Under the pieces are notes generated by a model, which had not been told where the DNA came from, did no database searches, and saw only the letters and a list, made by a program, of their open reading frames with translations. A stretch of 64,000 nucleotides of DNA from an uncultured Actinomycetes bacterium (GTDB lineage: Bacteria; Actinomycetota; Thermoleophilia; UBA2241): assembly GCA_963725665.1 (NCBI GenBank), contig CAVRZA010000003.1:224001-288000 (forward strand), in the 5' to 3' direction. The position numbers and the translations under genes are program-made. This document shows positions 1,319 to 58,702 of the stretch, in pieces (position 1 is the first letter of the stretch; each line of letters begins with the position of its first letter).

Positions 1319-2451
1319 GCAAGGCTTTCGTCTGTGTGCTCGATGGTGTCGGTGCCGGGGAGCTGCCGGACGCGGCGGCCTTCGGCGATGCCGGCGCCAA
1401 CACCCTGCTGCACACGCTGCAGCGCACGCGCGTCGCGCTGCCCAACCTCGGCACCCTGGGCCTCGGCGAGGCCGTGGGCTACCCCCTCGGTCCTGCCCGC
1501 TCCGACGCGACCTTCGGGCGCCTGCTTGAAAGGGCGCCCGGCAAGGACACGACCACCGGGCACTGGGAGATGATGGGGCTCGTCCTGGAGCATGCCTTCC
1601 CGACCTACCCGCACGGCTTCCCGCCGGAGGTCGTCGAGCCGTTCGAGGCCGCCGTCGGTCGCCGCGTGCTGGGCAACAAGCCGGCCTCGGGCACCGGCAT
1701 CATCGACGAGCTCGGCGCCGAGCACATCGCCACCGGCAGGCCGATCCTCTACACGTCGGCCGACTCCGTGTTCCAGCTCGCCTGCCACGAGGAGGTCGTC
1801 TCCGTCGTGCAGCTCTACGACTGGTGCCTCGCGGCGCGCGGCCTGCTGGCCGGGCGGCACGGCGTCGGGCGGGTCATCGCCAGGCCCTTCGTGGGCCGCC
1901 CCGGCGCCTTCGAGCGCACGCGCAACCGGCGCGACTTCTCGCTGCCGCCGTCGGGGCCGACCTACCTCGACCTGCTGGCCGAGCGCGGCGTGCCGGTCGT
2001 CGGCGTGGGCAAGATCGGCGAGATCTTCACCATGCGCGGCATCGGGGAGAGCCATCACATGGAGTCCAACGGCGACGGATTACGCCAGAGTTTGAGCCTC
2101 CTACGCCGGCTCGAGCATGGGTTCCTCTACACCAACCTGGTCGACTTCGACATGATCTGGGGTCACCGCAACGACGTCGAGGGCTTCGCCGCCGGCCTCG
2201 CCGAGGTCGATAGCTTCGTGCCCGAGCTTGTCGCCGCGCTGGGGGCGGATGATCTGCTCATCTTCTGCGCCGACCACGGCGTCGACCCGACGACCGAGGG
2301 TTACGACCACACACGGGAGTACTCGCCTCTGGCGGCGCTCGGCCTCGGGGGCGGACGCTACGACGGGCTGCTCGAGGACGTCGGCGCGACGGTCTTCCAG
2401 CGCCTCGTGGGGGAGCAGCCGCCGCTCATCGGCTCGGTCATCGGCTCATGA
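1315..2451 (+). CDS. deoB: Phosphopentomutase
   Basis: VLDGVGAGELPDA, GKDTTTGHWE, YTSADSVFQ, NLVDFD, GHRND, DHTREY. Confidence 0.95.
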   Translation: MSKAFVCVLDGVGAGELPDAAAFGDAGANTLLHTLQRTRVALPNLGTLGLGEAVGYPLGPARSDATFGRLLERAPGKDTTTGHWEMMGLVLEHAFPTYPHGFPPEVVEPFEAAVGRRVLGNKPASGTGIIDELGAEHIATGRPILYTSADSVFQLACHEEVVSVVQLYDWCLAARGLLAGRHGVGRVIARPFVGRPGAFERTRNRRDFSLPPSGPTYLDLLAERGVPVVGVGKIGEIFTMRGIGESHHMESNGDGLRQSLSLLRRLEHGFLYTNLVDFDMIWGHRNDVEGFAAGLAEVDSFVPELVAALGADDLLIFCADHGVDPTTEGYDHTREYSPLAALGLGGGRYDGLLEDVGATVFQRLVGEQPPLIGSVIGS

Positions 2452-3203
2452 CGAGTGACGTCGCCGACGGAGCGACGGTCCGCGCGCTCGTGTCGGGTGA
2501 AGGGATCGCGGCCCACAGCGCGGTCGTCTTCGGCTCGGGGCTCGCCGTGGTGCCCGCCGGCGCAGACGTCGACGGCGAGCTCGACTACGCTGCTCTGGGA
2601 TGGCCGGAGCTCGGGGTCGAGGGGCACGCGGGCCGGCTTGTCGTGGTGACGCTCCAGGGCAAGCGCGTGTTGCTCGCTTGCGGGCGACCGCACCTCTATG
2701 AGGGCTGGTCGAGCGAGGAACTGGCGCGACCCGTATCCGATCTCGCCTCGTGGGGGGTCCGCCGCCTGCTGGTGACGAACGCCTGCGGGGGCTTGAGCGC
2801 GCGCACGCCGCCGGGCTCGGTGGTGGTCGTCGATGAGGTGGTCGACCTGCAAGAAGCGCCGGCGGTTGAGCCAGAGGTGCTGCCGGCGTCGAGCCCGGCG
2901 TGGGCCGCGCGCTGTGTGGAGCGGCTGGCGCCGTGGTTCCCCGTGGTGCGCGGGCGCTACGTCGCCGTACCGGGCCCGCAGTTCGAGACCGCGGCCGAGG
3001 CGCGCTGGCTGGCGGGCTACGGCGACGCCGTCGGCATGTCGACGGCGCCCGAGGTGCGCGCGGCGCGCGAGCACGGCCTTGAGATGGCCGTGCTCGCGCT
3101 GGTAGTCAATCGCTCGGGCGCTTCCGTGGGGCACGACGAGGTCCTCGTGGCGGCGCGTGGGATGGCCGCGCGGCTGCGCGAGGCCCTCCCGGCGATCCTG
3201 TAG
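2448..3203 (+). CDS. Purine nucleoside phosphorylase (trimeric type)
   Basis: FGSGL, VEGHAG, GRPHLYEG, TNACGG, GPQFET, VGMST. Confidence 0.85.
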   Translation: MTSDVADGATVRALVSGEGIAAHSAVVFGSGLAVVPAGADVDGELDYAALGWPELGVEGHAGRLVVVTLQGKRVLLACGRPHLYEGWSSEELARPVSDLASWGVRRLLVTNACGGLSARTPPGSVVVVDEVVDLQEAPAVEPEVLPASSPAWAARCVERLAPWFPVVRGRYVAVPGPQFETAAEARWLAGYGDAVGMSTAPEVRAAREHGLEMAVLALVVNRSGASVGHDEVLVAARGMAARLREALPAIL

Positions 3204-3264
3204 GCGGGTCCGGGTTCCAGGGCCGGAGAGGCGCGAGGAGTCGAGGGAAGAAGCGGAGGCCGGG

Positions 3265-7355: not shown

Positions 7356-7538
7356 ATGCCCGTTCCCAAAAGGAAGACGTCGCAGAGGAAACGCGACCAG
7401 CGGCGCGCGCAGCAGAAGCTGGACGCCGCGCAGCTCAGCTACTGTCCGCAGTGTCACAGCCCCAAGCTGCCTCACCGCGTCTGCCCCAAGTGCGGCACCT
7501 ACAAGGGGCGCGAGATCATCCCCATGGAGCAGAAGTAG
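7356..7538 (+). CDS. rpmF: 50S ribosomal protein L32
   Basis: MPVPKRKTS, CPQC, PHRVCPKCGTY. Confidence 0.97.
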   Translation: MPVPKRKTSQRKRDQRRAQQKLDAAQLSYCPQCHSPKLPHRVCPKCGTYKGREIIPMEQK

Positions 7539-9947: not shown

Positions 9948-10190
9948 ATGACGAGAGAAGAGATCTTCGAGCAGGTCAAGGTCATCCTGGTCGATACGCT
10001 GAGCGTTGACGAGGACAAGGTGACGATGGACGCTCGCTTCCAGGAAGACCTGGAGACCGATTCGCTCGATCTCGTGGAGCTCGTCATGACGATGGAGGAG
10101 AAGTTCGGCATCAAGATCACGGATGAGGAAGCGGCTGAGATCAAGACAGTCGGCGACGCCGTCGACTTCGTCCAGAAGCGCATCTCCTAG
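9948..10190 (+). CDS. acpP: Acyl carrier protein
   Basis: [10 protein letters not shown] attachment motif. Confidence 0.96.
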
Positions 10191-10223: not shown

Positions 10224-11306
10224 GTGAGCGGGAGACGACCCCTTTTCTCTGGCGGCCGACGCGGCAAGCACTGGCGCCTCTTGGCGCTGGCGCAGCAGCT
10301 CGACGCCGAGACGGTGCGCCAGGTGTTCACGCACTCCTCCTGGGTGAGCGAGCGTGGTCGCTCCTACGAGCGCCTCGAGTTCCTCGGCGACAGCGTCTTG
10401 AGCCTCGCGGTGACGACCGACCTCTACCGGCGCTTTCCGGGACACAGCGAGGGGCACCTGGCGCGGCTGCGCGCCTACGTCGTCAGCCGTGCGACGTGCG
10501 CCAAGGTCGCCAAGGAGCTCGGCCTCGACCGCCTTCTGGGCGAGGTCGGCGCCGACCACGAGGCCAGCGAGCTCGACCAGCTCATGGCCAACCAGAACGT
10601 GCTCGCCGACGTGACTGAGTCGCTGATCGGCGCGCTCTACCTCACCTTCGGTTTCGACGCCGTGCGTCCCGGGGTGGTCGAGGCGTTCGCCGAACACATC
10701 GACTACGCCGAGAAGAGCTACGTCGACTTCAAGACCGAGCTGCAGGAGCAGCTTGCCAAGCAGGGCACGTCGGTCAACTACGCCCTAGTAGGCTTCAGCG
10801 GACCGGCGCACGAGCGTCACTTCACCGTCGAGGCGGTCGTCGACGGCGAGACGCTCGGCCGAGGCGTCGGGCCCAGCAAGAAGCGCGCCGAACAGGAGGC
10901 CGCCGCTCAGGCCATGGCCGAGCTGGCCCGGCGCGCGAAGCGTCGAGGCCGGCGCGTGCGCTTGCTGGGGCCGGCGCGCAAGACGGCCGGTGCGCGAGCG
11001 GAGGCCGCCGCAGACGCGGCGGAGTGGCCGGAGGGGGCGGAGGGTTCGGAGGAGACCGAGGGAGCGGCGATCGAGCACGAGCCAGAGCCGGAGCCGGGCC
11101 GACGGGCGGAGGAGCCCGCGACGGAGTCGCAGGGCGCTGCGGCTGCCTCAGCCGACTCGGACGTCGCCGGCGGACCGCCGGGCGAGGCTGCTCCTCCAGG
11201 ACCGGCCAAGCCGGCGGTCGAACCGGGCACCGCTACGGCGCGGCGACGAGGCGGACGCGGCCGCTCTCGGCGGCGTCGGTCGAGCGGGGAGGCGACTGAG
11301 TCCTGA
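10224..11306 (+). CDS. rnc: Ribonuclease III with long low-complexity C-terminal tail
   Basis: YERLEFLGDSVL, dsRBD (DFKTELQE, SKKRAEQ); start uncertain. Confidence 0.93.
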   Translation: MSGRRPLFSGGRRGKHWRLLALAQQLDAETVRQVFTHSSWVSERGRSYERLEFLGDSVLSLAVTTDLYRRFPGHSEGHLARLRAYVVSRATCAKVAKELGLDRLLGEVGADHEASELDQLMANQNVLADVTESLIGALYLTFGFDAVRPGVVEAFAEHIDYAEKSYVDFKTELQEQLAKQGTSVNYALVGFSGPAHERHFTVEAVVDGETLGRGVGPSKKRAEQEAAAQAMAELARRAKRRGRRVRLLGPARKTAGARAEAAADAAEWPEGAEGSEETEGAAIEHEPEPEPGRRAEEPATESQGAAAASADSDVAGGPPGEAAPPGPAKPAVEPGTATARRRGGRGRSRRRRSSGEATES

Positions 11307-14300
11307 TGTACCTGCGCGCCGTGCGCCTCAAAGGCTTCAAGTCCTTTCCCCTGCAGACCGAGCTCGTCTTCGAGCCCGGGATCGCCGTGGTCATAGGTCC
11401 CAACGGCAGCGGCAAGAGCAACATCGCCGACGCGGTCATGTGGGTGCTCGGTGAGCAGAGCCCGACGACCGTCCGGGGCTCGTCGATGCAGGACATGATC
11501 TTCGCCGGGAGCGACGGCCGGCGAGCGAGCGGCAGCGCGGAGGTCGAGCTCACGTTCGACAACGGCGACGGCGCGCTGTCGCTGCCGACCCCCGAGGTCA
11601 GCATCGGGCGGCGCGTGCGTCGCGACGGCGAGGCGACCTACTTCATCAACCGTTCGCCGTGTCGCCTGACCGACGTCGTCGAGCTGGTGGCCGAGGTCGG
11701 CCTGGGCAAGGAGATGCACTCCATCGTCGGGCAGGGCAAGGTGGAGTCGCTGCTCGCTGCCAAGCCGGTCGACCGCCGCGCGCTGGTCGAGGAGGCCGCC
11801 GGTCTGGGACGGTACAAGCGTCGGCGCGAGCGGGCCGAGCTCAAGCTGCGCGAGGTGGCGCGCAACTTGGAACGCGCGCGCGAGACCGAACGCGAGGCGG
11901 CCACCCGCCTCGCTCCCCTGCGCCGGCAGGCGAACGCCGCCGAGCTCTCGCGCGCCCTCGAGACCGAGCTCTCGGAGATCGAGGCCCGGCTGCTTGCCGG
12001 CGAGCTCGAAGAGGTCGCCGGGCGCGCCGACGCCGAGCGCGCCGCCCTCGACGAGGCTGCGGCCGGCAGGGCCCTGGTCGACGAGCGGCTGCGCGAGACG
12101 GCGTCACAACGGCGGGCTGACGACGAGCGTTTCGCGCGCGAGCTTGAGGAACGCGAGCGCCGCCGGCAGCGCGCCGTTCGCGCTCGCTACCTTGGAGACC
12201 GCATCGAGAGCTGCGTGCGTCTGACTGCTCAGCGCGGCGCGCTCCTCGAAGAGGTCGAGCGCGCCGCGCGCGGCGAGGTCGAGCGTCTGCGGGCCGAGCT
12301 GGCGCTGACCGCCGCTCGGCCGGCAAGCGACGACGACGATGCCGACGTCGAGGCCGGTCTGGCGGCGGCGCTCGCCGCCGCCGAGAGCGCCCACGACGAC
12401 GCCGCAAGGGAGCTGGCGACCGCACGGCGGGTGCAGGCGGAGGCGCGCGGCGAGCGTGACCACCTGACCGCCGAACGCGAGAACACCGCGGCTCGAGCGC
12501 AGCGGCTGCGCGAACGCGTGCGCGAGCTCGACGAGGCGGCCGCGCTCGCGTCGGCGCAGACTGAGAGCGCGCGCGACCAGGCGGCCGGGCGCCGGGCGGC
12601 GTTCATCGCCGGCGCGGCACGGAGGAGGCGGCGCGCGCCGCCGAGACGCGGGCCGAGGCGGCGGCGCGCGCCGCCGAGACGCGCGTGTCGGCCGCCAGGT
12701 CGGCACTGAGGGACGCTGAGGAGGATCTGCACGCTCTGACCGCCGAGAGGCGCGCGCTGGAGCTAGAGCTCGAGCACCTCACCGCCGGCCTGCGCGACCT
12801 CGACGAGGTCGGTACCGCCGTGCTCGAGGTGACCGGCGCCTTCCCGGGGGCCGCGGTCCTGGCGCAGGTGGTCGGCTGCGAGCGCGGCTACGAGAAGGCG
12901 CTGGCCGCCGCTCTGGCTCAGAGTCCGGGGGCCATCGCCGTGCCGCGCTCGCTCGACGGCTGGTCGCTACTGGCGGCGCTGCGCCAGGCGGGCGTCTCGC
13001 TTGCCCGTCTCCTGGTGCCCGTGAGGCGCGAGGAGGCGGCGGCCTTCCCCGGGGCGGCGCCGCTGCTCGACAAGGTCACCGTCGACGGCGAGGAGCTGGA
13101 GGAGTTCCTCGCCGGTGTCGTCGTGGTCGACGATCTGCGCGCGGTGCCCGATGGTTTCGACGGTCTCGCGGTGACGCTCGAGGGAGCCTACTACCGACCA
13201 CGTGCCGGTGAGCTCGGGTTGGCTGCGGGCGTGCCGGCGGCGGTGGTGCTCGAGCGGCGTTCGCGTGCGAGCGAGCTCGAGGCGAGGCTGGCTGCCACGC
13301 GCGCCAGCGAGCTGCGCGAGCAGCCGGTCGTGGCGCGCCTGCGTGATGATGGCGACGCTGCCGACGAGGCGCGGCGTGAGCTCGAGGGCGCGCTCGAGAA
13401 GGCGCGCGTCGAGGGACGCCGCGTGGCCGCCCAGCGGCGCGCGCTCGAGGACGAAGTGAACGCCCTCGAGGCCGGCGTGGGGCAGGCCGAACGGGCGCGA
13501 GACGCTTCGCTGGCCGAGGCCGACGCCGCTCGCGCCGACGTCGTGGCGCTCGAGGCGCGCGATGCGGAGCTCCTTATGAGGCTCGACACGCTTGCACCCG
13601 CCGTCGCCGCGGCCGAGTCGGCCGCGGCGGCCGCCGAGGAGCGTCATGAGGTCGCGCTGTCGGCCGTCACCACGGCCCGGGTCGAGCATGATTCTTACAA
13701 GGCACGCCAAAGCCAGGCCCAAGAGGAGCGGGCGCGGGCGCTCGCTCGTCAGGCGAGCGCTCGCGCCCGCCTCGAGGAGCTCGAACGCCGTCTGCGCGGC
13801 ATCCCCGCTACGCGCGAGGCCTCGGGCGAGCTGGCCGCCGCGCTGGCCGCCGCCCGCGCCCGCGCCGCGGCGCTGGCCGAACGGCTCGAGTCGCAGGCCG
13901 GCGACCTCGACGCTCTGCCGCGGCGCGAGGAGTCGCGCCGCCTCGCCGAGCGCGAGGTCGAACTGCGACAGGAGGCGGAGGCGCTGGGCGAGCGGCGCGC
14001 GGCCGCTCAGGTGGAGCTGACGCACGTCGAGGAGCGGCGGGCCGAGCTCGCCCAGCGCCTCGACGCCATCGCCGAACGGCTCGAGCGGGCCTCGTTCGCG
14101 CCGCCGGCCGACGAGGACGAGGCGCGGGCGCTGCGCGCCCGCGCCGAACGCCTCGCGCGACGGCGCGACGGCCTCGGCCCCGTCAACCCGCTGGCCGAGG
14201 CGGAGTGCGCGGAGCTCGACGAGAGGGTGGGCTTCCTCCGCGAGCAGGTGCGCGACCTGGAGCGGTCGAGCGGCGAGCTGCAGGAGCTGATCGCCGAACT

Positions 14301-14913
14301 GACGGGCCGCATCGACGACGACTTCAGTGAGACGCTGACGGTGGTGGCGGACCAGTTCGAGAAGATGTGCGCCATCCTGTTCCCCGGCGGCCGCGGCAGG
14401 CTGCTGCTCGTCGAGGCCGAAGGCGACGAGCCCGGCGGGGTGGGCATCGAGGTCAAGCCGGCGCGCAAGCTGGGCAAGAAGCTGGGCCTGCTCTCGGGCG
14501 GCGAGCGCGCGCTGGTGGCGATCGCCTTCCTCATGGCCCTCATGCTGGCTCGCCCCAGCCCGTTCTACATCCTCGACGAGATCGAGGCGGCGCTCGACGA
14601 CATCAATATCGGGCGTTTCGTCTCGCTGCTGCGGGAATACCGCGACCGCACGCAGTTCGTCATCGTCACCCATCAGAAGCGCACCATGGAGGCGGCTGAT
14701 GTGCTCTACGGCGTGACGATGGGGCCCGACGGCGCCTCACACGTCGTGAGCGCGCGCATGGCGGAACAGGAGATCGAGGCCGAGGAGGCCGCCGGGCCCA
14801 GGGCGGCGCGAACGGCTGAGACGCAGGCTGAGCCGCCCGGCGTGGGGTCGGCGGCGGTAGCCATGGTGAGACTCGACGACGACGCCGGAGCGCCGGTGGA
14901 CGAGGTGGACTAG
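11306..14913 (+). CDS. smc: Chromosome segregation protein SMC (one apparent frameshift near 12600-12620)
   Basis: GFKSF and GPNGSGKSN in 11306..12709; LSGGE and ILDEIEAALD in 12685..14913. Confidence 0.92.
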
Positions 14914-15918
14914 GTGGAGTGGCACGAAACGTTCAAGGGCGTCTCGGCTCAGGCCGAGGCGGCGGCGGCCGTCGAGGAGGAGCGCGAGCGCGCCGGTCTC
15001 TTCAGGCGCTTCCGCGACAACCTCGGCAAGGCCCGCGCCACGCTGCGCGACCACTTCCGCACCATCCTCTTCGACAGGCTCGACGAGGAAGTCTGGGAGC
15101 AGGTCGAGGAGGCGCTCATCTTCGCCGACGTGGGCGTCGACGCGACCGTGAAGATCGTCGCGCAGCTCGAGCAGCGCGCCGCGGAGGGCGCCATCGAGTC
15201 GCGCGAGCAGCTCTTCGAGGCGCTGGCCGACGTGGTGGCGACGATGCTGCGTCCACCCGACCCCGATGACCAGCTCATCGACGTCAGCGGCGACCCCTCG
15301 GTCATCCTGATCGTGGGCGTCAACGGTACGGGCAAGACGACGACCATCGGCAAGCTCGCCTACCGGCTCCATCAACTCGGAAAGTCGCCGCTCATGGTGG
15401 CCGCCGACACCTTCCGCGCCGCGGCTGTCGAACAGTTGAGCGAGTGGGCCGACCGGGTCGGCTGCGAGATCGTCAAGCAGGCCCAGGGCAGCGACCCGGC
15501 GGCGGTCGTCTACGACGGTATCGCCGCCGCCCGTTCGCGCGACCACGACGTGGTCATCGTCGATACCGCGGGGCGTCTGCACACGCAGGTCAACCTCATG
15601 CGCGAGCTCGAGAAGGTGAGGCGGGTGGTCGAGAAGCAGGTCCCGTTGGGGCCGGTCGAGACGCTGCTCGTCATCGACGCGACGACGGGCCAGAACGGGC
15701 TGCGCCAGGCCGAGGTCTTCCGCGAGGCCGTCGATGTGACGGGGGTCGTGCTGACGAAGCTCGACGGCACGGCCAAGGGCGGCATCGTCGTGGCCATCCA
15801 CGAGACGCTGGGCATCCCCATCAAGCTGATCGGCGTGGGGGAGAAGCTCGACGAATTGCGCCCCTTCGACGCCGAGCAGTACGCGCGCGCGGTCTTCGGC
15901 GGCGACGCCGCCGATTAG
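14914..15918 (+). CDS. ftsY: SRP receptor FtsY
   Basis: GVNGTGKTTT, DTFRAAA, DTAGR, TKLDGTAKGG. Confidence 0.96.
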   Translation: MEWHETFKGVSAQAEAAAAVEEERERAGLFRRFRDNLGKARATLRDHFRTILFDRLDEEVWEQVEEALIFADVGVDATVKIVAQLEQRAAEGAIESREQLFEALADVVATMLRPPDPDDQLIDVSGDPSVILIVGVNGTGKTTTIGKLAYRLHQLGKSPLMVAADTFRAAAVEQLSEWADRVGCEIVKQAQGSDPAAVVYDGIAAARSRDHDVVIVDTAGRLHTQVNLMRELEKVRRVVEKQVPLGPVETLLVIDATTGQNGLRQAEVFREAVDVTGVVLTKLDGTAKGGIVVAIHETLGIPIKLIGVGEKLDELRPFDAEQYARAVFGGDAAD

Positions 15919-15997: not shown

Positions 15998-17323
15998 ATG
16001 TTCGAATCCTTGACCGAACGCCTACAGGGCGCCCTCGGCGAGCTGCGTGGGCACGGCAAGCTGAGCGCCCCAGACATCGACAGGGCGATGCGCGAGATCC
16101 GCCTGGCGCTGCTCGAGGCCGACGTGAACTTCAAGGTGGTGCGCGAGTTCGTCGCCCACGTGAAGGAGCGCGCCCTGGGGCAGGAGGTGATGGAGAGCCT
16201 CACGCCGGCCCAGCAGGTGGTCAAGATCGTCAACGAGGAGCTGACCGCTCTGATGGGCGCCGGCGACTCCAAGCTCGCCTTCAGCGGCCGGCCACCGACG
16301 GTGATCCTCATGGCCGGCCTGCAGGGCTCGGGCAAGACGACGGCCTGCGCCAAGCTTGCGACCTTCCTCAAGAAGGACGGCAAGCGGCCGGTGCTCGTGG
16401 CCGCCGACGTCTATCGTCCGGCGGCCATCGACCAGCTCGTCGCCCTCGCCGCGCGTGCCGACGTGCCCGTCTACGCGCCCGGTGGCGATGTGGACCCCGT
16501 CGACATCGCCAAACAGGGGGTCGAGTTCGCGCGCGAGAAGGGCGACGTGGCCATCATCGACACCGCTGGGCGACTGCACATCGACGAGGTGCTCATGGAC
16601 GAGCTGGTGCGCATCCGCAAGGAGGTCAAGCCGCACAACATCCTCCTCGTCGTCGACGCCATGACCGGCCAGGACGCCGTCAACGCCGCCGAGCAGTTCA
16701 AGCAGCGCGTCGACATCGACGGCGTGGTCCTGACCAAGCTCGACGGCGACGCGCGCGGCGGCGCCGCCCTCAGCGTGCGCGCCGTCACCGGCAAGCCGAT
16801 CAAGTTCGCCAGCACCGGGGAGAAGCTCGGCGACCTCGACTACTTCCATCCCGACCGCATGGCCTCGCGCATCTTGGGCATGGGCGACGTCCTCTCGCTC
16901 ATCGAGCGCGCGCAGGAGAACATCGACGAGACGCAGGCGGCGCAGATGGAGGAGCGCCTGCGCAAGGCCGAGTTCACCTTCGATGACTTCCTCGTGCAGA
17001 TGAAGCAGGTGCGCAAGATGGGATCCCTGTCGAGCATCATCGGCATGCTGCCCGGCATCCCTGGCATGAAGCAGCTCAAGAATGTGCAGGTCGACGACAA
17101 ACAGCTCGACCGCATCGAGGCTATGGTGCTCTCGATGACGCCTGACGAGCGCCGCCATCCGGAGATCATCGATGGCAGCCGACGCCAGCGCATCGCGCGC
17201 GGCAGCGGCCACACGGTGCAGGACGTCAACGCTCTGCTCAAGCAGTTCCGCGAGATGCAGAAGATGGTCAAGCAGCTCGCCGGCGGCAAGATGCCGAAGC
17301 TCGGCCCGGGGATGCCGTTCTAG
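15998..17323 (+). CDS. ffh: Signal recognition particle protein Ffh
   Basis: ALLEADV, GLQGSGKTT, DTAGR, Met-rich M domain. Confidence 0.97.
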   Translation: MFESLTERLQGALGELRGHGKLSAPDIDRAMREIRLALLEADVNFKVVREFVAHVKERALGQEVMESLTPAQQVVKIVNEELTALMGAGDSKLAFSGRPPTVILMAGLQGSGKTTACAKLATFLKKDGKRPVLVAADVYRPAAIDQLVALAARADVPVYAPGGDVDPVDIAKQGVEFAREKGDVAIIDTAGRLHIDEVLMDELVRIRKEVKPHNILLVVDAMTGQDAVNAAEQFKQRVDIDGVVLTKLDGDARGGAALSVRAVTGKPIKFASTGEKLGDLDYFHPDRMASRILGMGDVLSLIERAQENIDETQAAQMEERLRKAEFTFDDFLVQMKQVRKMGSLSSIIGMLPGIPGMKQLKNVQVDDKQLDRIEAMVLSMTPDERRHPEIIDGSRRQRIARGSGHTVQDVNALLKQFREMQKMVKQLAGGKMPKLGPGMPF

Positions 17324-17450: not shown

Positions 17451-17696
17451 GTGGCAGTACGCATGAGGCTGAGCAGGGTCGGCAGCACCAAGAACCCCAT
17501 CTACCGCATCGTCATCGCCGACGCGCGCGCTCCGCGCGACGGCCGTTTCATCGCGACGATCGGTCACTACAACCCGCAGGTCGACCCGTCCTCCATCGAC
17601 ATCGACAAGGCCAAAGCGAGCGAGTGGTTGAAGAAGGGCGCCCAGCCGAGCAGGACCGTGAAACGGCTGCTGGCGCGCCAGGGCATCGACACCTAG
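17451..17696 (+). CDS. rpsP: 30S ribosomal protein S16
   Basis: VRMRLSRVG, PRDGRFI, GAQPS. Confidence 0.97.
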   Translation: MAVRMRLSRVGSTKNPIYRIVIADARAPRDGRFIATIGHYNPQVDPSSIDIDKAKASEWLKKGAQPSRTVKRLLARQGIDT

Positions 17697-17973: not shown

Positions 17974-18468
17974 ATGGCCGGTCTGTGGGCCTTCGCCACC
18001 GTGGGGCGAGCCCACGGCCTGCACGGTGAGATCTACCTCGACCTCCTGCCCGGCGGCCTCGACTACCTGACCAGGGGGTCGTCGTTCTCTATCGACGGGG
18101 GCGGCGGTCGGGTCACGCCCGTGCGCCTCGCGCGCACGGGCGGCACCGACCGCCGCCCTCTCGCGCGTCTCGACATCGCCGAGACGATCGACGAGGCGCG
18201 CGCCCTGCACGGCACGGTGCTCTACGCGCAGGCCGACGAGCTCGACGAAGGCGTCGATCACTTCCTGGTGAGCGAGCTCGTCGGCCTGCGCGTAGTCTCG
18301 GGCGAGACCGACCTGGGCGAGGTACGCGGGGTGCTCATGAACCCGGCTCACGACATCCTCGAGATCGGCGGCGAGGGCCGCGAGACGGTGCTCGTGCCGC
18401 TGGTGAAGGAGCTCGTCGAGGTCGACCGCGAGCGCGGCGTCGTGATCGTGAAAGAGGGTCTCCTGTGA
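17974..18468 (+). CDS. rimM: Ribosome maturation factor RimM
   Basis: GRAHGLHGE, PAHDIL, LVPLV. Confidence 0.9.
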   Translation: MAGLWAFATVGRAHGLHGEIYLDLLPGGLDYLTRGSSFSIDGGGGRVTPVRLARTGGTDRRPLARLDIAETIDEARALHGTVLYAQADELDEGVDHFLVSELVGLRVVSGETDLGEVRGVLMNPAHDILEIGGEGRETVLVPLVKELVEVDRERGVVIVKEGLL

Positions 18469-19148
18469 AGTTCGACGTCTTCACGCTCTTCCCCGAGGCC
18501 TTCTCCTGGTTCCTGCAGCAGGTGCACGTACAGCGGGCACGCGAGCTGGGCGCCGAGTTCCGCCTCTGTAACTACCGCGACTACACGCCGCTGCGCCACG
18601 GGCAGGTCGACGACACCCCTTACGGGGGCGGCGCCGGCATGGTGTTGCGCATCGACGTCGTGGGCGCCGCTCTGGAGGCCGTCTACGGCATCGACTGCGT
18701 GCAGGTGAAGGCGGACAGGCGCGTCGTCGAGCTGACGCCCCGCGGGCGCCAGCTCGACGACGCGCTCGCCGGCGAGTTGGCCCAGGGCGACCTGTGCCTC
18801 CTCTGCGGGCGCTACGAGGGTATCGACGAGCGCGTGCGCGAGCTGGTGAACGACCGCGTGTCGATCGGGCCGTACGTTCTCTCCGGCGGAGAGATCGCCG
18901 CCGCGGCCCTCCTCGACGCGGTCGTGCGCAAGATCGAGGGCGCCGTATCCAACCCGGAGAGCGTGAGCTCCGACTCGTTCGCGCCCGGCCTGGCGGGAGC
19001 GCTGGAACACCCGCACTACACGCGGCCGGCGGAGTTCCACGGCTGGCGCGTGCCGGACGTTCTGCTCAGCGGTGACCATGCCGAGATCGAGCGCTGGCGG
19101 CGCGGCAACCTCGGCGGGCAGCCCCCAGACAAGAAGTCCGACCGCTGA
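18465..19148 (+). CDS. trmD: tRNA (guanine-N1)-methyltransferase
   Basis: VDDTPYGGGAGM, CGRYEGIDER, YVLSGGE, HYTRP. Confidence 0.97.
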   Translation: MKFDVFTLFPEAFSWFLQQVHVQRARELGAEFRLCNYRDYTPLRHGQVDDTPYGGGAGMVLRIDVVGAALEAVYGIDCVQVKADRRVVELTPRGRQLDDALAGELAQGDLCLLCGRYEGIDERVRELVNDRVSIGPYVLSGGEIAAAALLDAVVRKIEGAVSNPESVSSDSFAPGLAGALEHPHYTRPAEFHGWRVPDVLLSGDHAEIERWRRGNLGGQPPDKKSDR

Positions 19149-21550: not shown

Positions 21551-21956
21551 TCACGTACACATTGGAGCCGTCACCGGCCGTTCGTTGGACGATGTGTCAC
21601 GGAGCGATTCGACGGGCGGCGAGGCGACTCCAACTGTTAGTTCTGCGTACGGAACCAAGGTTCGAACGCGACGGTTCCGGTCGGCATGCATTGGCGCTTG
21701 ATGGGGCGAGAACGCGATGGCTGCAAGGTCGCAGACGGATCATTCCACGTTGTCTCGAGGTCGCGTTCCCCCGCCCGGGCGGTCTCGAATCGACCGCCTT
21801 CCAGTACGACCACGGTCGTAGAACCTTTTGGCGCAAAGTGCGACAGGAGAGCGAGAGGCGTCGTTGGTCACCGCTCTCACGCCGAGGAGGTGATGTCATC
21901 CCGAGAAGGCTGACCGGCCGAAGGAAGAGCAGTGAATCCCGAAAGGAGGGAGTCAC

Positions 21957-36779: not shown

Positions 36780-36834
36780 CGCGCAAGGCGAGAGCCCCAG
36801 GGTTGACGCAATCCGATTGTTGGAGGTCACAGGC

Positions 36835-37479
36835 ATGGCAAACGAAGAGTTCTTCGCCGAGGCAAACGCGGCGATCAAGGCGTGCGACAAGGAGAAAGCC
36901 ATCGCTGCCGCCAAGCGCGGGCTGGCGGCGGGCATCCCGCCCGACGAGATGCTGAAGAAGGGCTTCGTCGTCGGCATCTCTGAGATGGGCGACCTTTTCG
37001 AGCGCGGCGAGGTTTTCCTTCCGGAGCTCGTCCTTGCGGCCGACGCCATGATGGGCGCCGCCGAGGTGTGCAACGCGGCGCTGCCCGAGGGCAAAGGCGA
37101 GAAGAAGGGCACCGTAGTCATCGGGACCGTTCAGGGAGACGTGCACGACATCGGCAAGACGATCGTCGTCGCGTTCCTGCGCGCGAACGGTTACGACGTT
37201 CACGACCTCGGCCGCGACGTCGCGGGCGCCAAGTTCATCGACAAGGCCGCCGAGGTCAACGCGGACGTCGTCGGCATGAGCGCTCTCCTGACGACCACCA
37301 TGCGCGAGCAGATCAGGGTGCTCGATGCAATGAAGACGGCCGGCGTGCGCGACAAGTACAAGGTCATCGTCGGCGGCGGCGCATCGACCCAGAAATGGGC
37401 CGACAAGATCGGCGCCGATGCTTACGCGGAGGACGCCAACGACGGCGTGAAGAAGATCAACGAGCTCACCGGCAACTGA
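36835..37479 (+). CDS. mtbC: Cognate corrinoid protein (MtbC-like)
   Basis: GTVQGDVHDIGK, SALLTTTM; follows mtbB. Confidence 0.88.
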   Translation: MANEEFFAEANAAIKACDKEKAIAAAKRGLAAGIPPDEMLKKGFVVGISEMGDLFERGEVFLPELVLAADAMMGAAEVCNAALPEGKGEKKGTVVIGTVQGDVHDIGKTIVVAFLRANGYDVHDLGRDVAGAKFIDKAAEVNADVVGMSALLTTTMREQIRVLDAMKTAGVRDKYKVIVGGGASTQKWADKIGADAYAEDANDGVKKINELTGN

Positions 37480-41185: not shown

Positions 41186-41530
41186 GTGACCGTCATCGAC
41201 AACATCGAGCGTCAGCAGCTGCGCGACGACATTCCGCAGTTCAAGGCCGGGGACACGGTCAAGATCCACTTCCGCGTTGTCGAGGGCAGCCGGCAGCGCA
41301 CGCAGATCTTCCAGGGCATCGTGATCAAGCGCCAGGGCGCCGGCGTGCGCGAGACGTTTACCGTGCGCAAGCAGTCGTTCGGCGTCGGCGTCGAGCGCAC
41401 CTTCCCGCTGCATTCACCCAAGATCGAGAAGATCGAGGTCGTCATGATCGGCGACGTGCGACGGGCGAAGCTCTACTACCTGCGCCAGAAGGTCGGCAAG
41501 CAGGCGAGGGTCCGCGAGAAGCAGCGCTAG
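41186..41530 (+). CDS. rplS: 50S ribosomal protein L19
   Basis: [34 protein letters not shown]. Confidence 0.97.
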
Positions 41531-48983: not shown

Positions 48984-50596
48984 GTGCCGGTAGTCAGCAT
49001 GAAGGAGCTGCTGCAAAGCGGCGTCCACTTCGGCCACCAGACCCGCCGTTGGAACCCCAAGATGAAGCCCTACATCTTCACCGAGCGGGGCGGCATCTAC
49101 ATCATCGATCTGCAGAAGACGAGCGCGCTTCTCGACGAGGCACACGACTTCCTGCGCAACATCGCCGAGCGGAACGGCACGGTGCTCTTCGTAGGCACCA
49201 AGAAGCAGTGCCAGGACTCCATCAAGGAGGAGGCCGCGCGCGTCGGCATGCCTTACGTCGCGACGCGCTGGCTGGGTGGCCTGCTGACCAACTTCGCCAC
49301 GCTCTCGAAGCGCATCCGGCGCCTCCACGAGCTGCGCAAGCTGGTCGAGGACGGCTCCCTCGACGTCTTGCCGACGCGCGAGGCGATGCGCATGCGCGGC
49401 GAGCTCGAGAAGCTCGAGACCAACCTCAGTGGCGTGGCCGACATGGACCGCCTGCCCGACGCTGTGTTCGTCATCGACCCGCGCAAAGAGGCCATCGTCG
49501 TGCGCGAGGCGAACAAGCTGAAGATCCCCATCGTGGGCCTCGTCGATACGAACTGCGACCCCGACGAGATCACCTACGTCATCGCCGGCAACGACGACGC
49601 CATCCGTTCCTGCTCACTCATCGTGCGCGTGGTCGCCGAGGCTGTGGCCGAGGGCAAGCAGAAGGTCGCCGAGGCCGAGTTCCGCGCCGCCGCGGCCGCG
49701 GCCGCCGAGAAGCCCGAACCCGCGCTTGCCGACGCGCTGGGTGAGGGTGAGGCGAAGCCGGTCGAGTCACGTGCCGCGCGCCCCGACCGTCCGCCAGTGA
49801 GGACCGACCGTCCGCCCGCGAGGACCGACCGTCCGCCCGCGAGGACCGACCGTCCGCCAGTGAGGACCGACCGTCCGCCTGTGCGGAGCGACCGTCCGCC
49901 GTGAGGACCGACCGTCCGCCCGCGAGGACCGACCGTCCGCCCGCGAGGACCGACCGTCCGCCCGCGAGGACCGACCGTCCGGGTGCGCGATCCGACCGTC
50001 CGCCCGCGAGGACTGACCGTCCGGCTGGTCCTCGGCCCGAACGACCGGCACCGCCCAGGGAGGCGCCGCCGGCGGCCGCCAAGCCGGCCGAGAAGGCCGC
50101 TGCGCCACCCGAGAAGGCCGCCGACGCCCCTGCTTCGGCACCTGTGAAAGAGCCGGCTGCGGAGGTCAAGGCGACCGAAGCTGTCGAGGCGACCGAAGTT
50201 GTCGAGAAGGCGACCGAAGCGGCGACTGGCGCTCAGAAGCCGGCCAAGGCGACGGACGAGAAGCCCGAGATTGCTCCGGCGCCCGCCTCCGAGAAGCCGG
50301 CTGAGTCGACCTCCGAGAAGCCGGCTGAGTCGACCCACAAGAAGGCCGAGGCCGCTGCCGCCGAGAAGCCTGCTGCCGAAGCCACTGAGAAGCCTGCCGC
50401 CAGGGCGGCCGCGAAGAAGGATGAGTCTACCGTCGCCGAGAAGCCGGCCGCAAAGGCGAGGGCGAAGAAGGCTGCGCCGGCCGCCGAGGCTGTCGCGGCG
50501 GAGTCAGAGGCAGAGGCGGTCGGCGATCCGCCGGCAGACGCGCCCGAGGCCGTCGAGGCCGCGGACGCGTCGGCGGCGGAAGCGAGCGACAAGTAG
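48984..50596 (+). CDS. rpsB: 30S ribosomal protein S2 with ~290-aa low-complexity tail (apparent frameshift near 49900)
   Basis: [37 protein letters not shown]; tail continues in ORF 49901..50596. Confidence 0.93.
49779..50029 (+). repeat. 12 x 21-nt tandem repeat encoding RTDRPP(A/V)
   Basis: aggaccgaccgtccgcccgcg-type units; one unit is 20 nt. Confidence 0.92.
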
Positions 50597-52109: not shown

Positions 52110-52667
52110 GTGGAGAAAGAGCTGCTCGACGAGGCCAAGGCGCGCATGGCGAAGGCCGTGGAGGCGACGCGGACGGAGTTCAACACCGTGCGCAGCGGGC
52201 GCGCCTCGACCGGCCTGCTCGACCGCGTGCACGTCGACTACTACGGCGCCTCGACGCCGCTCAGACAACTGGCGAACATCGCCGTGCCCGAGGCTCGGCT
52301 GCTCACCATCACGCCCTACGACAAGGGCTCCATCCGCGCCATCGAGAAGGCCATCCTCGAGTCCGACCTGGGGCTCAACCCGAGCAACGACGGCACGATC
52401 ATCCGCCTGCCGGTACCCACTCTGACCGAGGAGCGCCGCCGCGACCTCGTGAAGCTGGTCCATCGCCTGGCTGAGGACGGACGCGTCGCCGTACGCAACA
52501 TCCGCCGCGACTGCATGAAGGACCTGAAGGAGCTGCGCGAGGAAGGCATGGTGGGCGAGGACGCCGAACGCCGTGCCGAGGAGCAGTTGCAGAAGCTGAC
52601 CGACCAGCACGTGCACGAGATCGACGAGCTCCTGAAGCACAAGGAGCAGGAGATCATGGAGGTCTAG
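52110..52667 (+). CDS. frr: Ribosome recycling factor
   Basis: RSGRA, DYYG, LTEERR, RNIRR. Confidence 0.97.
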   Translation: MEKELLDEAKARMAKAVEATRTEFNTVRSGRASTGLLDRVHVDYYGASTPLRQLANIAVPEARLLTITPYDKGSIRAIEKAILESDLGLNPSNDGTIIRLPVPTLTEERRRDLVKLVHRLAEDGRVAVRNIRRDCMKDLKELREEGMVGEDAERRAEEQLQKLTDQHVHEIDELLKHKEQEIMEV

Positions 52668-54450: not shown

Positions 54451-55684
54451 AGGCCCGGTGGCGTCGGCTCCGCGATTCGTGCTCGTGCTCGGGTCGACCG
54501 GCTCCATCGGGCGCCAGGCCCTGGAGGTCATCTCGGCGACCCCAGGCTTGAGCGTCGCCGGCCTCGCGGCGCACGCCGACGTCGACGGCCTGCTGCAGCA
54601 GGCCGTCGACGCCGGCGTGCGCCTGCTCGCCCTGGGCGACGAGAGGCGCGCCGCAGAGGCACGCGAGCGGCTCGGGAGCCTGCCCGGCGGGCGGTCGCCA
54701 CACAAGACCCTCAACGACGCGCGTGTCTTCGTCGGCGACGAGGGCGTCGAGGAGCTCATCGCAGTGGCTGCCGCCGAGGCGCAGGCCGGCGGCGCCGAGC
54801 TGATCGTGCTCAACGCCGTCGTCGGCGCCGCCGGCCTGCGCGCGACCATGGCGACCCTGCGCCGGGGCGTCACCCTGGCTCTGGCCAACAAGGAGAGCCT
54901 CGTCGCCGGCGGTCCGTTCGTGCTCGAAGCGGCCCGCCAGGACGGCGCGCGGATCCTCCCGGTCGACAGCGAGCACAGCGCCATCTTCCAGCTCCTCGAG
55001 GGCGAGCGGCCCCAGGCGATCGAGGAGATCCTCCTCACGGGCTCCGGCGGGCCGTTCCGCGGCCGCTCGCGCGCGGAGCTGCCCGACGTGACGGCCGACG
55101 ACGCGCTACGCCACCCGACGTGGGTCATGGGTCCCAAGATCACCATCGACTCGGCCACGTTGATGAACAAGGGCCTCGAGGTGATCGAGGCGCACTACCT
55201 CTTCGGCGTGCCCTATGAGCGCGTGACCGTCGTGATCCACCCGCAGTCGATCGTCCACTCGCTGGTGCGCTTCGCCGACGGAGCGCTGCTGGCGCACCTG
55301 GGTGTGCCCGACATGAGAGTGCCCATCGGCTACGCGCTGAGCTTCCCGGCGCGCGCCGACCTGCCCATGGTGGAGCGTCTCGACCTCTCGAACCGTGCCC
55401 TCACCTTCGAGCCGCCCGACACGGAGACGTTCCGCTGCCTCGCGCTCGCCTACGCGGCCGGCAGCGCCGGGGGAGCCGCGCCCGCCGTGCTGAACGCCGC
55501 CAACGAGGTGGCCGTGCACGCCTTCCTCGAAGGGAGGATCGGCTTCCTCGACATCGCTGCGCTGGTCGAGGAAGCCCTCGCCGCGCTCGGCGCCTCAGCG
55601 TGCGCCTCGATCGACGACATATACGCCGCCGACAGCGCCGCACGCGGGTTTGTGCTCAGGAAGCTAGGGCAAGCTTCCGAGTAG
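54437..55684 (+). CDS. dxr: 1-deoxy-D-xylulose 5-phosphate reductoisomerase
   Basis: LGSTGSIG, LANKESLV, PVDSEH, GSGGPF, MNKGLE. Confidence 0.96.
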   Translation: MAEAGGPVASAPRFVLVLGSTGSIGRQALEVISATPGLSVAGLAAHADVDGLLQQAVDAGVRLLALGDERRAAEARERLGSLPGGRSPHKTLNDARVFVGDEGVEELIAVAAAEAQAGGAELIVLNAVVGAAGLRATMATLRRGVTLALANKESLVAGGPFVLEAARQDGARILPVDSEHSAIFQLLEGERPQAIEEILLTGSGGPFRGRSRAELPDVTADDALRHPTWVMGPKITIDSATLMNKGLEVIEAHYLFGVPYERVTVVIHPQSIVHSLVRFADGALLAHLGVPDMRVPIGYALSFPARADLPMVERLDLSNRALTFEPPDTETFRCLALAYAAGSAGGAAPAVLNAANEVAVHAFLEGRIGFLDIAALVEEALAALGASACASIDDIYAADSAARGFVLRKLGQASE

Positions 55685-56978: not shown

Positions 56979-57464
56979 CTACTTGAGGTGCAGGGAGGGG
57001 ATGCGCTCGGCGAGCAGATCAAGAAGACCGGGGCGAAGCTCGCGGCGGTAGCGCTCAGGTGGGCGGGCCCGCAACTCCGCGACAATGAGCTCGGGGCGTG
57101 GCGGGACGACGATCGCGTCGAGCTGGCTGACCAACGGGGCGGGGCTTTGCGAGGTGGGGAGGAGGGGCGCGGCGAGCACTCGCCGTCGCAGCTCGTAGGC
57201 GAGGCCCAGAGCCCACACGACCCAGGGATCGCGGAGAGTGTCCTCGCCCAGCAGGCAGAGAGCGGCCGAGGCCCGGTTCATGCGCTGCGCGAGACTGGAA
57301 CGGATGTAGCATGCCCCGACGGTATCGAAGCGGTCGCTCACGAGCGCGACATCGACGCCCAAGCCGTAGCCCCTACGGAGATCGCTCACGAGCGACTGCG
57401 CAAGCGGCACGTCGCGCTCGACCATCGTCAGAAACAAGTGTCCTTTTGTCGGCGTGTCGGCCAC
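56979..57464 (-). CDS. Stand-alone TIR-like (ThsB/DUF1863-like) protein
   Basis: LFLT, YIRSSL, ALCLLGEDT, PWVVWAL pattern; RBS GGGAG before GTG. Confidence 0.5.
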   Translation of the reverse strand: MADTPTKGHLFLTMVERDVPLAQSLVSDLRRGYGLGVDVALVSDRFDTVGACYIRSSLAQRMNRASAALCLLGEDTLRDPWVVWALGLAYELRRRVLAAPLLPTSQSPAPLVSQLDAIVVPPRPELIVAELRARPPERYRRELRPGLLDLLAERIPSLHLK

Positions 57465-57637
57465 GGCTCCCTCGCCCTCCTCGGCTCGTGAGCATGCGGT
57501 TGCCTTCCGAGGAGCATTCGCCCCTGGCGACGGCGACACCTTCCGGCCTCTCCCTCAACCTCTCCCTGAAGGCGAAAGTCGCGCGGGGAGACGGCATCCG
57601 TAGCGGGACGAGGCGCCATCGCGTATCCTCGGGGCCG

Positions 57638-58702
57638 ATGGAGCGCAAAAAGACACGGCAGATCCACGTCGGGCCTGTCGCCGTGGGCGGCGGCACGCCG
57701 GTCGTTGTCCAGTCGATGACCTCGACGCCGACGGGCGACGAGAGGGCCACGCTCGACCAGATCGTGCGTCTGGCCGCTGCGGGTTGCGAGGTCGTGCGCG
57801 TCAGCCTGCCCTCGGTCGACGAGCAGGAGGCGTTCGCGCACATCGTCGAGCACTCGCCGCTGCCGGTCATCGCTGACATCCACTTCGACTACCGCCTCGC
57901 CCTGATGGCGCTCGAGCGTGGCGCGGCCGGGGTGCGCGTCAACCCTGGCACCATCGGGCCGCAGCGCGTCGTGCGGCAGATCGTGGAGAAGGCCGCGCGG
58001 CACGGGGCCGCCGTGCGCATCGGCGTCAACTCGGGGTCGCTGCCGCGCGCGCTGCGTGAGCTGGCGCGCGCGCAGCCTGTCGAGGCCCTTGTGCGGGCAG
58101 CCGTCGGCTTCGCCGAGCGCTTCGATGAGTGGGGCTTTCGCGAGTTCAAGATCTCGGTGAAGTCGTCGAGCGTGCCCGACACCGTGGCCGCCTACCGGTT
58201 GCTGAGCGAGCGCACCGACGCGCCGCTGCACATCGGCGTCACTGAGGCCGGCACCGTCTGGGGCGGCACGATCAAGAGTGCCGTCGGCATCGGCACGCTA
58301 CTGGCCGAGGGCATCGGCGACACGTTGCGCGTGTCGCTCACCGGCGACCCCGTGGAGGAGGTGCGCGTCGCCTGGGCGATCCTCGCGGCGCTCGAGCTGC
58401 GGCGGCGAGGGCCCAACCTGATCTCGTGCCCGACCTGCGGTCGCACCGAGCTCGATCTGGCGGCCCTCGCCGCCGCGGTCGAGCGCCGCCTGCAGGCCTA
58501 CGCGGCGCCCATCTCGGTCGCCGTCATGGGCTGTCGCGTGAACGGACCCGAGGAGGCGCGCCTGGCCGACTTCGGCATCGCCGGCGGCAGGGGCGAGGGG
58601 GTCGTCTTCGCCGGCGGGCGCAAGGTCGCCACAGTGTCCGAAGACAAGCTCGTCGAGGCGCTGTTCGCGGAGATCGACCGCGTGGTCGTCGATCTCAGCT
58701 AG
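57638..58702 (+). CDS. ispG: HMBPP synthase IspG
   Basis: VQSMT, ADIHF, RVNPG, RIGVNSGS, CPTCGR, VMGC. Confidence 0.96.
   Translation: MERKKTRQIHVGPVAVGGGTPVVVQSMTSTPTGDERATLDQIVRLAAAGCEVVRVSLPSVDEQEAFAHIVEHSPLPVIADIHFDYRLALMALERGAAGVRVNPGTIGPQRVVRQIVEKAARHGAAVRIGVNSGSLPRALRELARAQPVEALVRAAVGFAERFDEWGFREFKISVKSSSVPDTVAAYRLLSERTDAPLHIGVTEAGTVWGGTIKSAVGIGTLLAEGIGDTLRVSLTGDPVEEVRVAWAILAALELRRRGPNLISCPTCGRTELDLAALAAAVERRLQAYAAPISVAVMGCRVNGPEEARLADFGIAGGRGEGVVFAGGRKVATVSEDKLVEALFAEIDRVVVDLS

Follow-up and report, generated by a model that had tools for sequence, protein, structure and literature searches.

The bacterium studied here, an uncultured member of the class Thermoleophilia (GTDB lineage Bacteria; Actinomycetota; Thermoleophilia; UBA2241; GenBank assembly GCA_963725665.1), ends more than a third of its genes in TAG and also carries a full set of genes for pyrrolysine (Pyl), together with 14 methyltransferase genes that each contain a single in-frame TAG. 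Our reading, to which we give a probability of about 0.85, is that UAG is ambiguous in this organism, being a stop codon for release factor 1 (RF1) and pyrrolysine at the 14 sites, and that the ambiguity is resolved by competition under a limited supply of charged tRNA and by local context. The window, which is the whole stretch of 64,000 nucleotides (nt) analyzed, covers positions 224001 to 288000 of contig C3 (CAVRZA010000003.1) of this genome (G000; 3.73 Mb, 12 contigs, G+C content of 0.68, 97.5% complete, 5.0% contaminated). From 2448 to 58702 on its forward strand, housekeeping genes lie around an island of methylamine genes, and TAG ends 24 of the 62 called genes. The closest named records of the Ffh, MtbB, and MttB proteins are metagenome-assembled genomes labelled Thermoleophilia, Actinomycetes, or Solirubrobacterales.

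Two uses of UAG in the genome and its family

The original prediction, made from the window alone, held that TAG is a major ordinary stop in a genome with Pyl-type genes and that UAG has a dual meaning there, and it named the location of pylTSBCD as a check. All the components, pylT, pylSc, pylSn, pylB, pylC, and pylD, were found on contig C6, a contig other than that of the window. ARAGORN placed a gene for tRNA-Pyl(CUA) immediately 3' of pylD, at C6:343702-343774; its anticodon stem has 6 bp, and its D and variable regions are short. The adjacent genes pylB, pylC, and pylD (C6:343844-347001) score 448.3, 338.7, and 211.6 bits, respectively, all above the NCBIfam cutoffs. The synthetase genes pylSc (C6:296212-297084; TIGR02367, 314.6 bits with a cutoff of 178) and pylSn (C6:298890-299234; TIGR03912, 119.9 bits with a cutoff of 51) form a second set about 47 kb from pylT-pylBCD on the same contig (296 to 299 kb versus 343 to 347 kb). 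The neighbors of the pyl genes are cell wall genes, a corrinoid protein gene (between pylSc and pylSn), and aldehyde oxidoreductase genes. The RF1 gene, prfA, is present as well (489.9 bits; cutoff, 423).

Methyltransferase genes are numerous in this genome, with 31 MttB-family matches, 8 mtbB genes, 1 Pyl-mtmB gene, and mtmB homologs without a TAG. Exactly one in-frame TAG occurs in each of 14 of these genes (1 mtmB, 8 mtbB, and 5 mttB) at the Pyl position common to bacterial and archaeal homologs, and coding potential continues 3' of every one. The mtbB copy at C2:503975-505331 is also frameshifted. A fifteenth candidate TAG (C1:36747) turned out to be an ordinary stop ahead of a start codon. 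The Pyl genes of the window, with Pfam scores for translations in which TAG is read as pyrrolysine (O), are as follows.

21957-23366, forward strand: mtmB (monomethylamine methyltransferase), in-frame TAG at 22581-22583, real stop TAA, Pfam MtmB 633 bits
35379-36779, forward strand: mtbB (dimethylamine methyltransferase), in-frame TAG at 36438-36440, real stop TGA, Pfam Dimeth_Pyl 664 bits

About 25 MttB-family paralogs and at least 2 full-length MtmB homologs are free of TAG; those examined carry a sense codon in place of the Pyl codon, and this hints at a large repertoire of putative non-Pyl methyltransferases for other substrates. A tRNA-Sec gene lies at C11:550041-550138, and the genome appears to expand both UGA (selenocysteine, Sec) and UAG (Pyl).

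Stop codons were counted with a custom caller (codon log-odds trained on long open reading frames [ORFs] with a high-GC3 pattern, followed by greedy selection of ORFs with low overlap), which gave 3318 genes at 82% coding density. As the stop codon is set by the frame alone and not by the chosen start, these counts are robust to start errors. TAG ends 1220 of the 3318 uncorrected calls; after removal of 14 N-terminal fragments that end at the Pyl codon, the 3304 remaining genes end in TAG (1206), TGA (1911), or TAA (187). The TAG share of 36.5% bears out the claim that TAG is a major ordinary stop beside Pyl-type genes, and with pyl genes found and TAG use high, the genome shows the opposite of both observations that had been named as speaking against that claim (no pyl genes and low genome-wide TAG use). 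The share lies between 36.8 and 40.3% at every caller score threshold, is homogeneous across the large contigs (32.9 to 39.9%; chi-square p = 0.16), and rises overall with codon bias (29.8, 33.5, 39.4, 36.1, and 46.2% in successive quintiles). Profile matches of rpmF, ffh, frr, rplS, and others reach the profile end just 5' of the TAG, and the 30 codons past TAG stops are noncoding on average (mean log-odds of -5.5). The pyl set, RF1, and 14 conserved in-frame TAGs alongside some 1200 TAG stops at true C termini therefore indicate that UAG has two meanings, as the original prediction had proposed.

A coding-like in-frame continuation (log-odds of at least 10) follows 53 of 657 TAG-ended genes versus 17 of 1017 TGA-ended genes. 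A TGA stop often shares the bases ATGA with the following start, which puts the next gene in a different frame. Among 48 candidates for extra Pyl genes, the best 12 were inspected and found to be operon junctions with TAG, ribosome-binding site, and start codon in one frame; this screen was nonexhaustive and not homology based.

The host's own pylSc, pylSn, and pylD genes all end in TAG. In 20 relatives pylSc ends in TAG (12), TAA (4), or TGA (4), which with the host makes TAG the pylSc stop in 13 of 21 family genomes, even though more genes there end in TGA than in any other stop. The preference is suggestive, with shared descent as a confounder. A GC-rich hairpin lies 3' of the host's pylSc stop.

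The distribution of pyrrolysine follows the family. Of 36 genomes in the host's GTDB family, 32 have PylS, as against 1 of 24 genomes from elsewhere in the class. One-TAG mtbB genes occur in 37 of 40 family genomes (38 of 41 with the host), with 1 to 11 copies each, and all 150 family mtbB matches listed carry exactly one TAG. Pyl-mtmB was found in only 3 of 41 family genomes. Taken together, these counts make pyrrolysine an old trait of the family and the mtmB island of the window a rare accessory. Two near-complete (98%), small (1.7 to 1.8 Mb) family members, G009 and G018, are without PylS and without mtbB, which looks like clean secondary loss and offers a useful natural control.

TAG use in relatives was sampled over 100 to 200 kb per genome with the same caller, for which a control sample of the host gave 34.0%. 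The TAG stops per sampled stops were as follows.

PylS-positive samples: G014, 55/164; G012, 35/191; G003, 40/129; G025, 31/106
Further PylS-positive samples: G019, 43/118; G024, 21/88; G022, 34/95; G044, 73/145
PylS-negative samples: G018, 44/157; G009, 29/137; G042, 41/185; G048, 47/194

The pooled shares are 332/1036 (32.0%) in PylS-positive and 161/673 (23.9%) in PylS-negative samples, and because these relatives are not independent, the comparison carries no more than the claim that TAG shows no depletion in PylS-positive kin. Within the family, PylS-positive samples range from 18 to 36%. In PylS-poor orders of the class, too, many housekeeping genes end in TAG. One PylS-positive genome outside the family, G044, reaches 50%. 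In the PylS-negative G018 (1.66 Mb, G+C content of 0.66), TAA makes up 53 of the 157 sampled stops (34%) versus 1 to 7% in its kin.

Context of the pyrrolysine codons

The codon just before the UAG (codon -1) follows a narrow choice. The one at mtbB is given below; codon -1 and UAG together span 36435-36440 in mtbB and 22578-22583 in mtmB.

36435-36437, forward strand: TTG leucine codon 5' of the mtbB Pyl UAG, rare and fixed

At the 14 sites of the host, codon -1 is TTG (10), GCG (3), or TAC (1). TTG accounts for 5.1% and TTA for 0.2% of leucine codons in the genome, and TTG precedes the stop in 4 of 80 ordinary genes that end in Leu-TAG. Across the family, mtbB has TTG (27) or TTA (3) at 30 sites, mttB has GCG (10) or TTG (9) at 19 sites, and the three mtmB genes have TTG, TTA, and TTG. 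TTG (19) or TTA (1) also precedes the UAG in 20 bacterial mtbB genes from Thermoleophilia, Gaiellales, Bacillota, Desulfobacterota, and Thermodesulfovibrionales, and TTG (46), TTA (2), or GCG (3) does so in 51 mttB genes of Actinomycetota. Other bacterial mttB genes, mostly from Desulfobacterota, have GGG (13), GGA (9), GGT (3), GGC (2), TTG (1), or GCT (1) (n = 29), and archaeal mtmB genes have ATA (59), GTT (10), or GTC (6) (n = 75), with ATA at 59 of 59 isoleucine positions. The apparent rule is UUG or UUA if the residue is leucine, GCG if it is alanine, mostly GGG or GGA if it is glycine (mttB of Desulfobacterota), and, in archaea, AUA if it is isoleucine. Codon -1 is thus conserved at the synonymous level, over several phyla and in three enzyme families that are not related to each other, and it is more striking than the other mRNA signals. 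It may reflect an influence of the P-site tRNA, or of bases -3 to -1, on the contest between RF1 and Pyl-tRNA. The available parts of the literature on pyrrolysine and UAG codon context, including PMC13663744, hold no -1 codon rule, which is weak evidence for newness.

Downstream of the UAG, two matches to Rfam PYLIS models were obtained in the window.

36438-36537, forward strand: PYLIS_2 (RF02509) at mtbB, starting at the UAG; 89.3 bits, gathering score 36; second hairpin at 36511-36528
22581-22680, forward strand: PYLIS_1 (RF01982) at mtmB, UAG plus 97 nt; 57.8 bits, below the gathering score of 70; E = 1e-10

The PYLIS_2 match is the sole Rfam match in the window at the gathering threshold. 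Over the genome, PYLIS_2 matches 8 of 8 mtbB sites (60.7 to 89.3 bits; gathering score, 36) and PYLIS_3 (RF02510) matches 5 of 5 mttB sites (54.6 to 71.4 bits; gathering score, 38), so that 13 of the 14 Pyl sites exceed the gathering score of a PYLIS model. The 100 nt 3' of the 14 sites fold more stably than 42 in-gene control windows (mean z of -1.33 versus -0.50; p = 0.007). In 30 family mtbB orthologs, 98.6% of cells in the second PYLIS_2 hairpin are paired, compensatory changes occur at two third-codon-position pairs, and the hairpin covariation score is 0.200 versus 0.122 ± 0.010 in 500 shuffles, none of which reached it. Single fixed codons near the mtbB UAG are TTG at -1, GGA at +26, and AGG at +39. 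The base 3' of the UAG is G at all 14 own Pyl sites, but G also follows TAG at 36% of ordinary stops and so does not tell the two apart.

What PYLIS does is a matter of dispute. An mRNA signal at the Pyl sites is plausible on these sequence features. The suggestion of such a signal in the original prediction gains from the strong mtbB match and the rare codon fixed before the UAG; it loses from the mtmB match, which stays below its gathering score, and from the nature of the models, which also score coding sequence.

The inventory of components, the counts of TAG stops, their position at true C termini, and the family-wide inheritance come directly from the analysis; how the two meanings are separated, we infer. 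RF1 would read UAG as stop in about 36% of genes, including ribosomal and strongly codon-biased ones, and pyrrolysyl-tRNA(CUA), made and charged by the products of pylT, pylSc, pylSn, and pylBCD, would read it as pyrrolysine in the 14 methyltransferase genes. RF1 and Pyl-tRNA would compete, harmlessly because the supply of charged tRNA would be limited to growth on methylamines, and local mRNA context (UUG or GCG before the UAG, G after it, and PYLIS-type structure downstream) would tilt the 14 sites toward insertion. In Acetohalobium arabaticum, pylTSBCD is reported to be expressed only with trimethylamine (PMC11467909), and in Methanosarcina acetivorans, charging of tRNA-Pyl is reported to depend on the carbon source (PMC13663744). 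A weaker idea is that the TAG stop of pylSc itself might give feedback on the supply of Pyl-tRNA.

Several points weigh against this account. TAG also ends 4 of the 14 Pyl genes, so one mRNA would have to be read both ways and induction alone would be insufficient. No methylamine regulator is evident beside the pyl genes, nothing in the sequence points to induction, and no Pyl methyltransferase gene lies beside the pyl genes on C6. There is no sign of read-through buffering in the genome, whether in back-up stops, in the following base, or in the genes near Pyl genes: the next in-frame stop is no nearer after TAG than after TGA (median of 43 versus 44 codons), the share of stops backed up by another in-frame stop within 5 codons is 7.8% for TAG and 9.3% for TGA, and the base 3' of the stop is similar for both (for TAG, A 18, C 34, G 36, and T 12%). 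Since each PYLIS model spans 100 nt of coding sequence that is itself conserved, homology accounts for a large part of the score; general synonymous constraint is absent around the mtbB UAG (codon entropy of 0.77 versus 0.76 gene-wide); and paralogs and kin are not independent, so that the p values overstate the case. The gene caller is crude, as its coding density indicates. Finally, 11 soil, peat, and paddy runs labelled RNA contain 5 to 16% of the sampled words of window positions 21900-26400, and among four runs compared, which together show at least 785 differences from the window, contigs of three span the mtmB UAG region at 95 to 98% identity (X1, 22422-22813; X7, 22554-22810; X9, 22481-22819). 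Run X1 is marked as probably DNA, and such contigs from RNA-labelled libraries show only the presence of close relatives' mtmB sequence, not transcription or its level, and support no conclusion about habitat.

The strongest rival gives context the whole task. In this tentative alternative, PYLIS and codon -1 would restrict pyrrolysine to the 14 sites, and ordinary TAG would not be read through even with abundant Pyl-tRNA. The PYLIS scores at 13 sites, the hairpin covariation at two pairs, the fixed rare codons, and the -1 rule in three unrelated enzyme families all favor it; ordinary TAG stops, on the other side, do not avoid the same flanking bases. Published work also speaks against it, in that neither an insertion element nor a special elongation factor is said to be required for Pyl (PMC13663744), and PYLIS is reported to raise the yield without being essential, with mttB described as having no common structure (PMC3639795). 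Possibly, though we would not bet on it, a local recoding context in bacteria (a purine-ending codon at -1, a purine at +1, and a PYLIS-type hairpin) marks the Pyl UAG and lets the genome keep at least a third of its genes TAG-ended.

The methylamine island, its flanks, and the remaining alternatives

Genes in the window were named with NCBIfam and Pfam profiles. Besides mtmB and mtbB, the island contains two corrinoid protein genes, amt, a kinase-like gene, two permease genes, two Usp genes, genes for DUF294 nucleotidyltransferases, and a gene for a pterin-binding protein.

19149-41185, no strand assigned: methylamine island, 22 kb between trmD (18465-19148) and rplS; 23 genes, 4 TAG-ended
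23480-24124, forward strand: corrinoid (B12-binding) protein by mtmB, TGA stop
24257-25483, forward strand: ammonium transporter (amt), TGA stop
27975-29276, forward strand: amino-acid-type permease, TGA stop
36820-37479, forward strand: corrinoid protein by mtbB, TGA stop
37894-39501, forward strand: second amino-acid-type permease, TGA stop

The gap between trmD and rplS is 22,038 bp here versus 82 to 1190 bp in the loci of 23 relatives, which marks the island as an insertion. Its G+C content is 0.64 to 0.67 versus 0.68 to 0.77 in the flanks, and no convincing direct repeats border it. A cNMP-CBS-DUF294 nucleotidyltransferase gene (31300-32982) is followed by a duplicate of about 70% identity at 33234-35058, which is spread over three ORFs.

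The flanks hold housekeeping genes in the order rpmF ... acpP, rnc, smc, ftsY, ffh, rpsP, KH, rimM, and trmD before the island and rplS, lepB, rnhB, yraN, yifB, dprA, an xerC/D-type recombinase gene, whiG, rpsB, tsf, pyrH, frr, uppS, cdsA, dxr, rseP, and ispG after it. The genes singled out for their stops are the following.

7356-7538, forward strand: rpmF, TAG stop
9948-10190, forward strand: acpP, TAG stop
11306-14913, forward strand: smc, in two overlapping frames, 11306-12709 (TGA) and 12685-14913; final stop TAG
14914-15918, forward strand: ftsY, TAG stop
15998-17323, forward strand: ffh, TAG stop
17463-17696, forward strand: rpsP, TAG stop
41186-41530, forward strand: rplS, TAG stop
48984-49904, forward strand: rpsB, TGA stop as assembled
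52110-52667, forward strand: frr, TAG stop
54479-55684, forward strand: dxr, TAG stop
57638-58702, forward strand: ispG, TAG stop

In the finding span, the flanks have 39 called genes, ending in TAG (20), TGA (17), or TAA (2), where one TGA is the false stop of the frameshifted smc; the split of smc, in a stretch with a G+C content of 0.77, is a frameshift or an assembly error. The 23 called island genes end in TGA (17), TAG (4), or TAA (2). The original prediction had counted 21 of 43 TAG-ended genes outside the island and 4 of 22 within it, so its pattern survives a recount and its exact totals shift slightly. Of the 11 genes that it named as ending in TAG, only rpsB differs, with TGA as assembled. 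It was also right that none of the seven core methylamine genes (mtmB, mtbB, their corrinoid protein genes, amt, and both permease genes) ends in TAG, since mtmB ends in TAA and the other six end in TGA.

The rpsB stop falls inside a 21-bp tandem repeat of 11.5 copies (49783-50023), and an ORF in another frame (49901-50596) reaches a TAG at 50594-50596, so that a TAG end for rpsB would need a frameshift. The rpsB product, S2, partly matches a "sunset domain" variant model, which leaves its true C terminus uncertain. Farther on, at 58819-63117 on the reverse strand, lies a run of InlB B-repeat (Flg_new_2) ORFs, three of them of 81 amino acids with a spacing of 429 bp, all TGA-ended; the run may represent a single large repeat protein that is interrupted by stops or frameshifts.

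The TAG shares of island and flanks differ (Fisher p = 0.014), but neither departs significantly from the genome rate, with p = 0.08 for the island and p = 0.07 for the flanks. The share of 51% in the flanks is a local high in keeping with strongly expressed genes. The scarcity of TAG in the island and its absence from the core methylamine genes would fit the view, implied in the original prediction, that methylamine genes, being expressed while Pyl-tRNA is charged, were selected to avoid TAG stops. We consider this unlikely, because the avoidance fails genome-wide: within five genes of the 14 Pyl genes, TAG ends 42 of 123 genes, against 1160 of 3168 elsewhere in the genome (p = 0.63), and it ends some of the Pyl genes themselves, as noted above. 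At the operon level, TAG ends 2 of only 8 neighbors of Pyl genes, too few to be informative. The island's share is explained as well by foreign origin or by chance; it is a genome-specific insertion of low G+C content, with Pyl-mtmB rare in the family, so donor stop usage may persist in it.

A view in which the Pyl system is a relic, with TAG only a stop and the interrupted methyltransferase genes pseudogenes, could draw on the very common TAG stops and the one frameshifted mtbB copy. It is highly improbable against six intact pyl components above curated cutoffs, coding potential past each of the 14 TAGs, one TAG kept in all the family mtbB matches listed, and the joint absence of PylS and mtbB from G009 and G018, the pattern of a working, co-inherited system. 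Most remote of all is a full reassignment of TAG to pyrrolysine, as reported for some archaea, a code in which TAG is never a stop and no UAG release factor exists: nothing beyond the presence of pyl genes favors it, whereas RF1 is present, conserved proteins end exactly at TAG, the stretch up to the next in-frame stop (a median of 43 codons) is noncoding in composition, and the 12 best coding-like extensions are the next gene with its own ribosome-binding site and start codon.

Relation to known systems and meaning for the family

A Pyl-decoding bacterium with TAG as a major stop is already known. A. arabaticum likewise has pylTSBCD, uses TAG as a frequent stop, and confines Pyl to methylamine methyltransferases (PMC4153887, PMC11467909), and Pyl-decoding bacteria are reported to have TAG at 20 to 30% of stops (PMC4153887, citing Prat et al. 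2012). The present host differs from bacteria of this type in belonging to the Actinomycetota, with a G+C content of 0.68, 14 Pyl genes, and a TAG share of 36.5% (50% in the PylS-positive relative outside the family), above the reported range. It also differs from A. arabaticum in the two separate places of its pyl genes, neither of them beside a Pyl methyltransferase gene. Clustering of pyl genes with methyltransferase genes is common in earlier reports (PMC7593587). Taking such clustering as a mark of the A. arabaticum type is our own reading; the host's pyl genes are unclustered in this sense.

With Methanosarcina and the Methanomassiliicoccales, the host shares an ambiguous UAG, the lack of a dedicated elongation factor, the same three enzyme families, and PYLIS-type regions (PMC12626013, PMC4153887, PMC13663744). 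Those archaea, in contrast, keep TAG low and below Pyl-negative kin (median of 5.0% of stops, with a range of 1 to 27%, in Pyl-positive versus 22.0% in Pyl-negative archaea; PMC12626013), while TAG here is at 36.5% and shows no depletion among relatives (32.0 versus 23.9%). A further difference from these archaea is the division of PylS into PylSn and PylSc. Other bacteria share this trait, and individual genes for the two parts are reported for Desulfitobacterium hafniense, Bilophila, and marine Deltaproteobacteria (PMC11467909, PMC7593587, PMC8318568, PMC9630628). Bilophila resembles the host further in having pyl genes not adjacent to a methyltransferase gene, and marine Deltaproteobacteria and worm symbionts resemble it in the presence of tRNA-Sec. 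The PYLIS-type elements agree with Rfam PYLIS_1, PYLIS_2, and PYLIS_3 in being 100 nt long from the UAG and in scoring above the gathering scores at mtbB and mttB, and differ at mtmB, where the score is below.

A survey of 81 bacterial genomes reported PylRS in only two Actinobacteria (PMC9630628), whereas here 32 of 36 genomes of one family have PylS, with 1 to 11 Pyl-mtbB copies each. In the available parts of the literature, Thermoleophilia and pyrrolysine are joined in incidental mention only. The present case adds a setting at the level of an actinobacterial family, a TAG share that is unusually high, and a candidate signal in the local context.

For annotation, the finding means that gene calling in such genomes needs to be TAG aware, as otherwise 14 genes are split in the host. 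It would also extend anaerobic-type methylamine demethylation, as predicted from the gene content, to the Actinomycetota. How cells tolerate UAG as both stop and pyrrolysine is called an open question for archaea in PNAS papers of 2025 and 2026. The soil and peat Thermoleophilia family is an extreme test case for it, with high G+C content, high TAG use, up to 11 Pyl-mtbB genes, vertical inheritance, and two near-complete members that have lost both PylS and mtbB; within this one lineage, stop usage, context signals, and the buffering of read-through can be compared between matched genomes.

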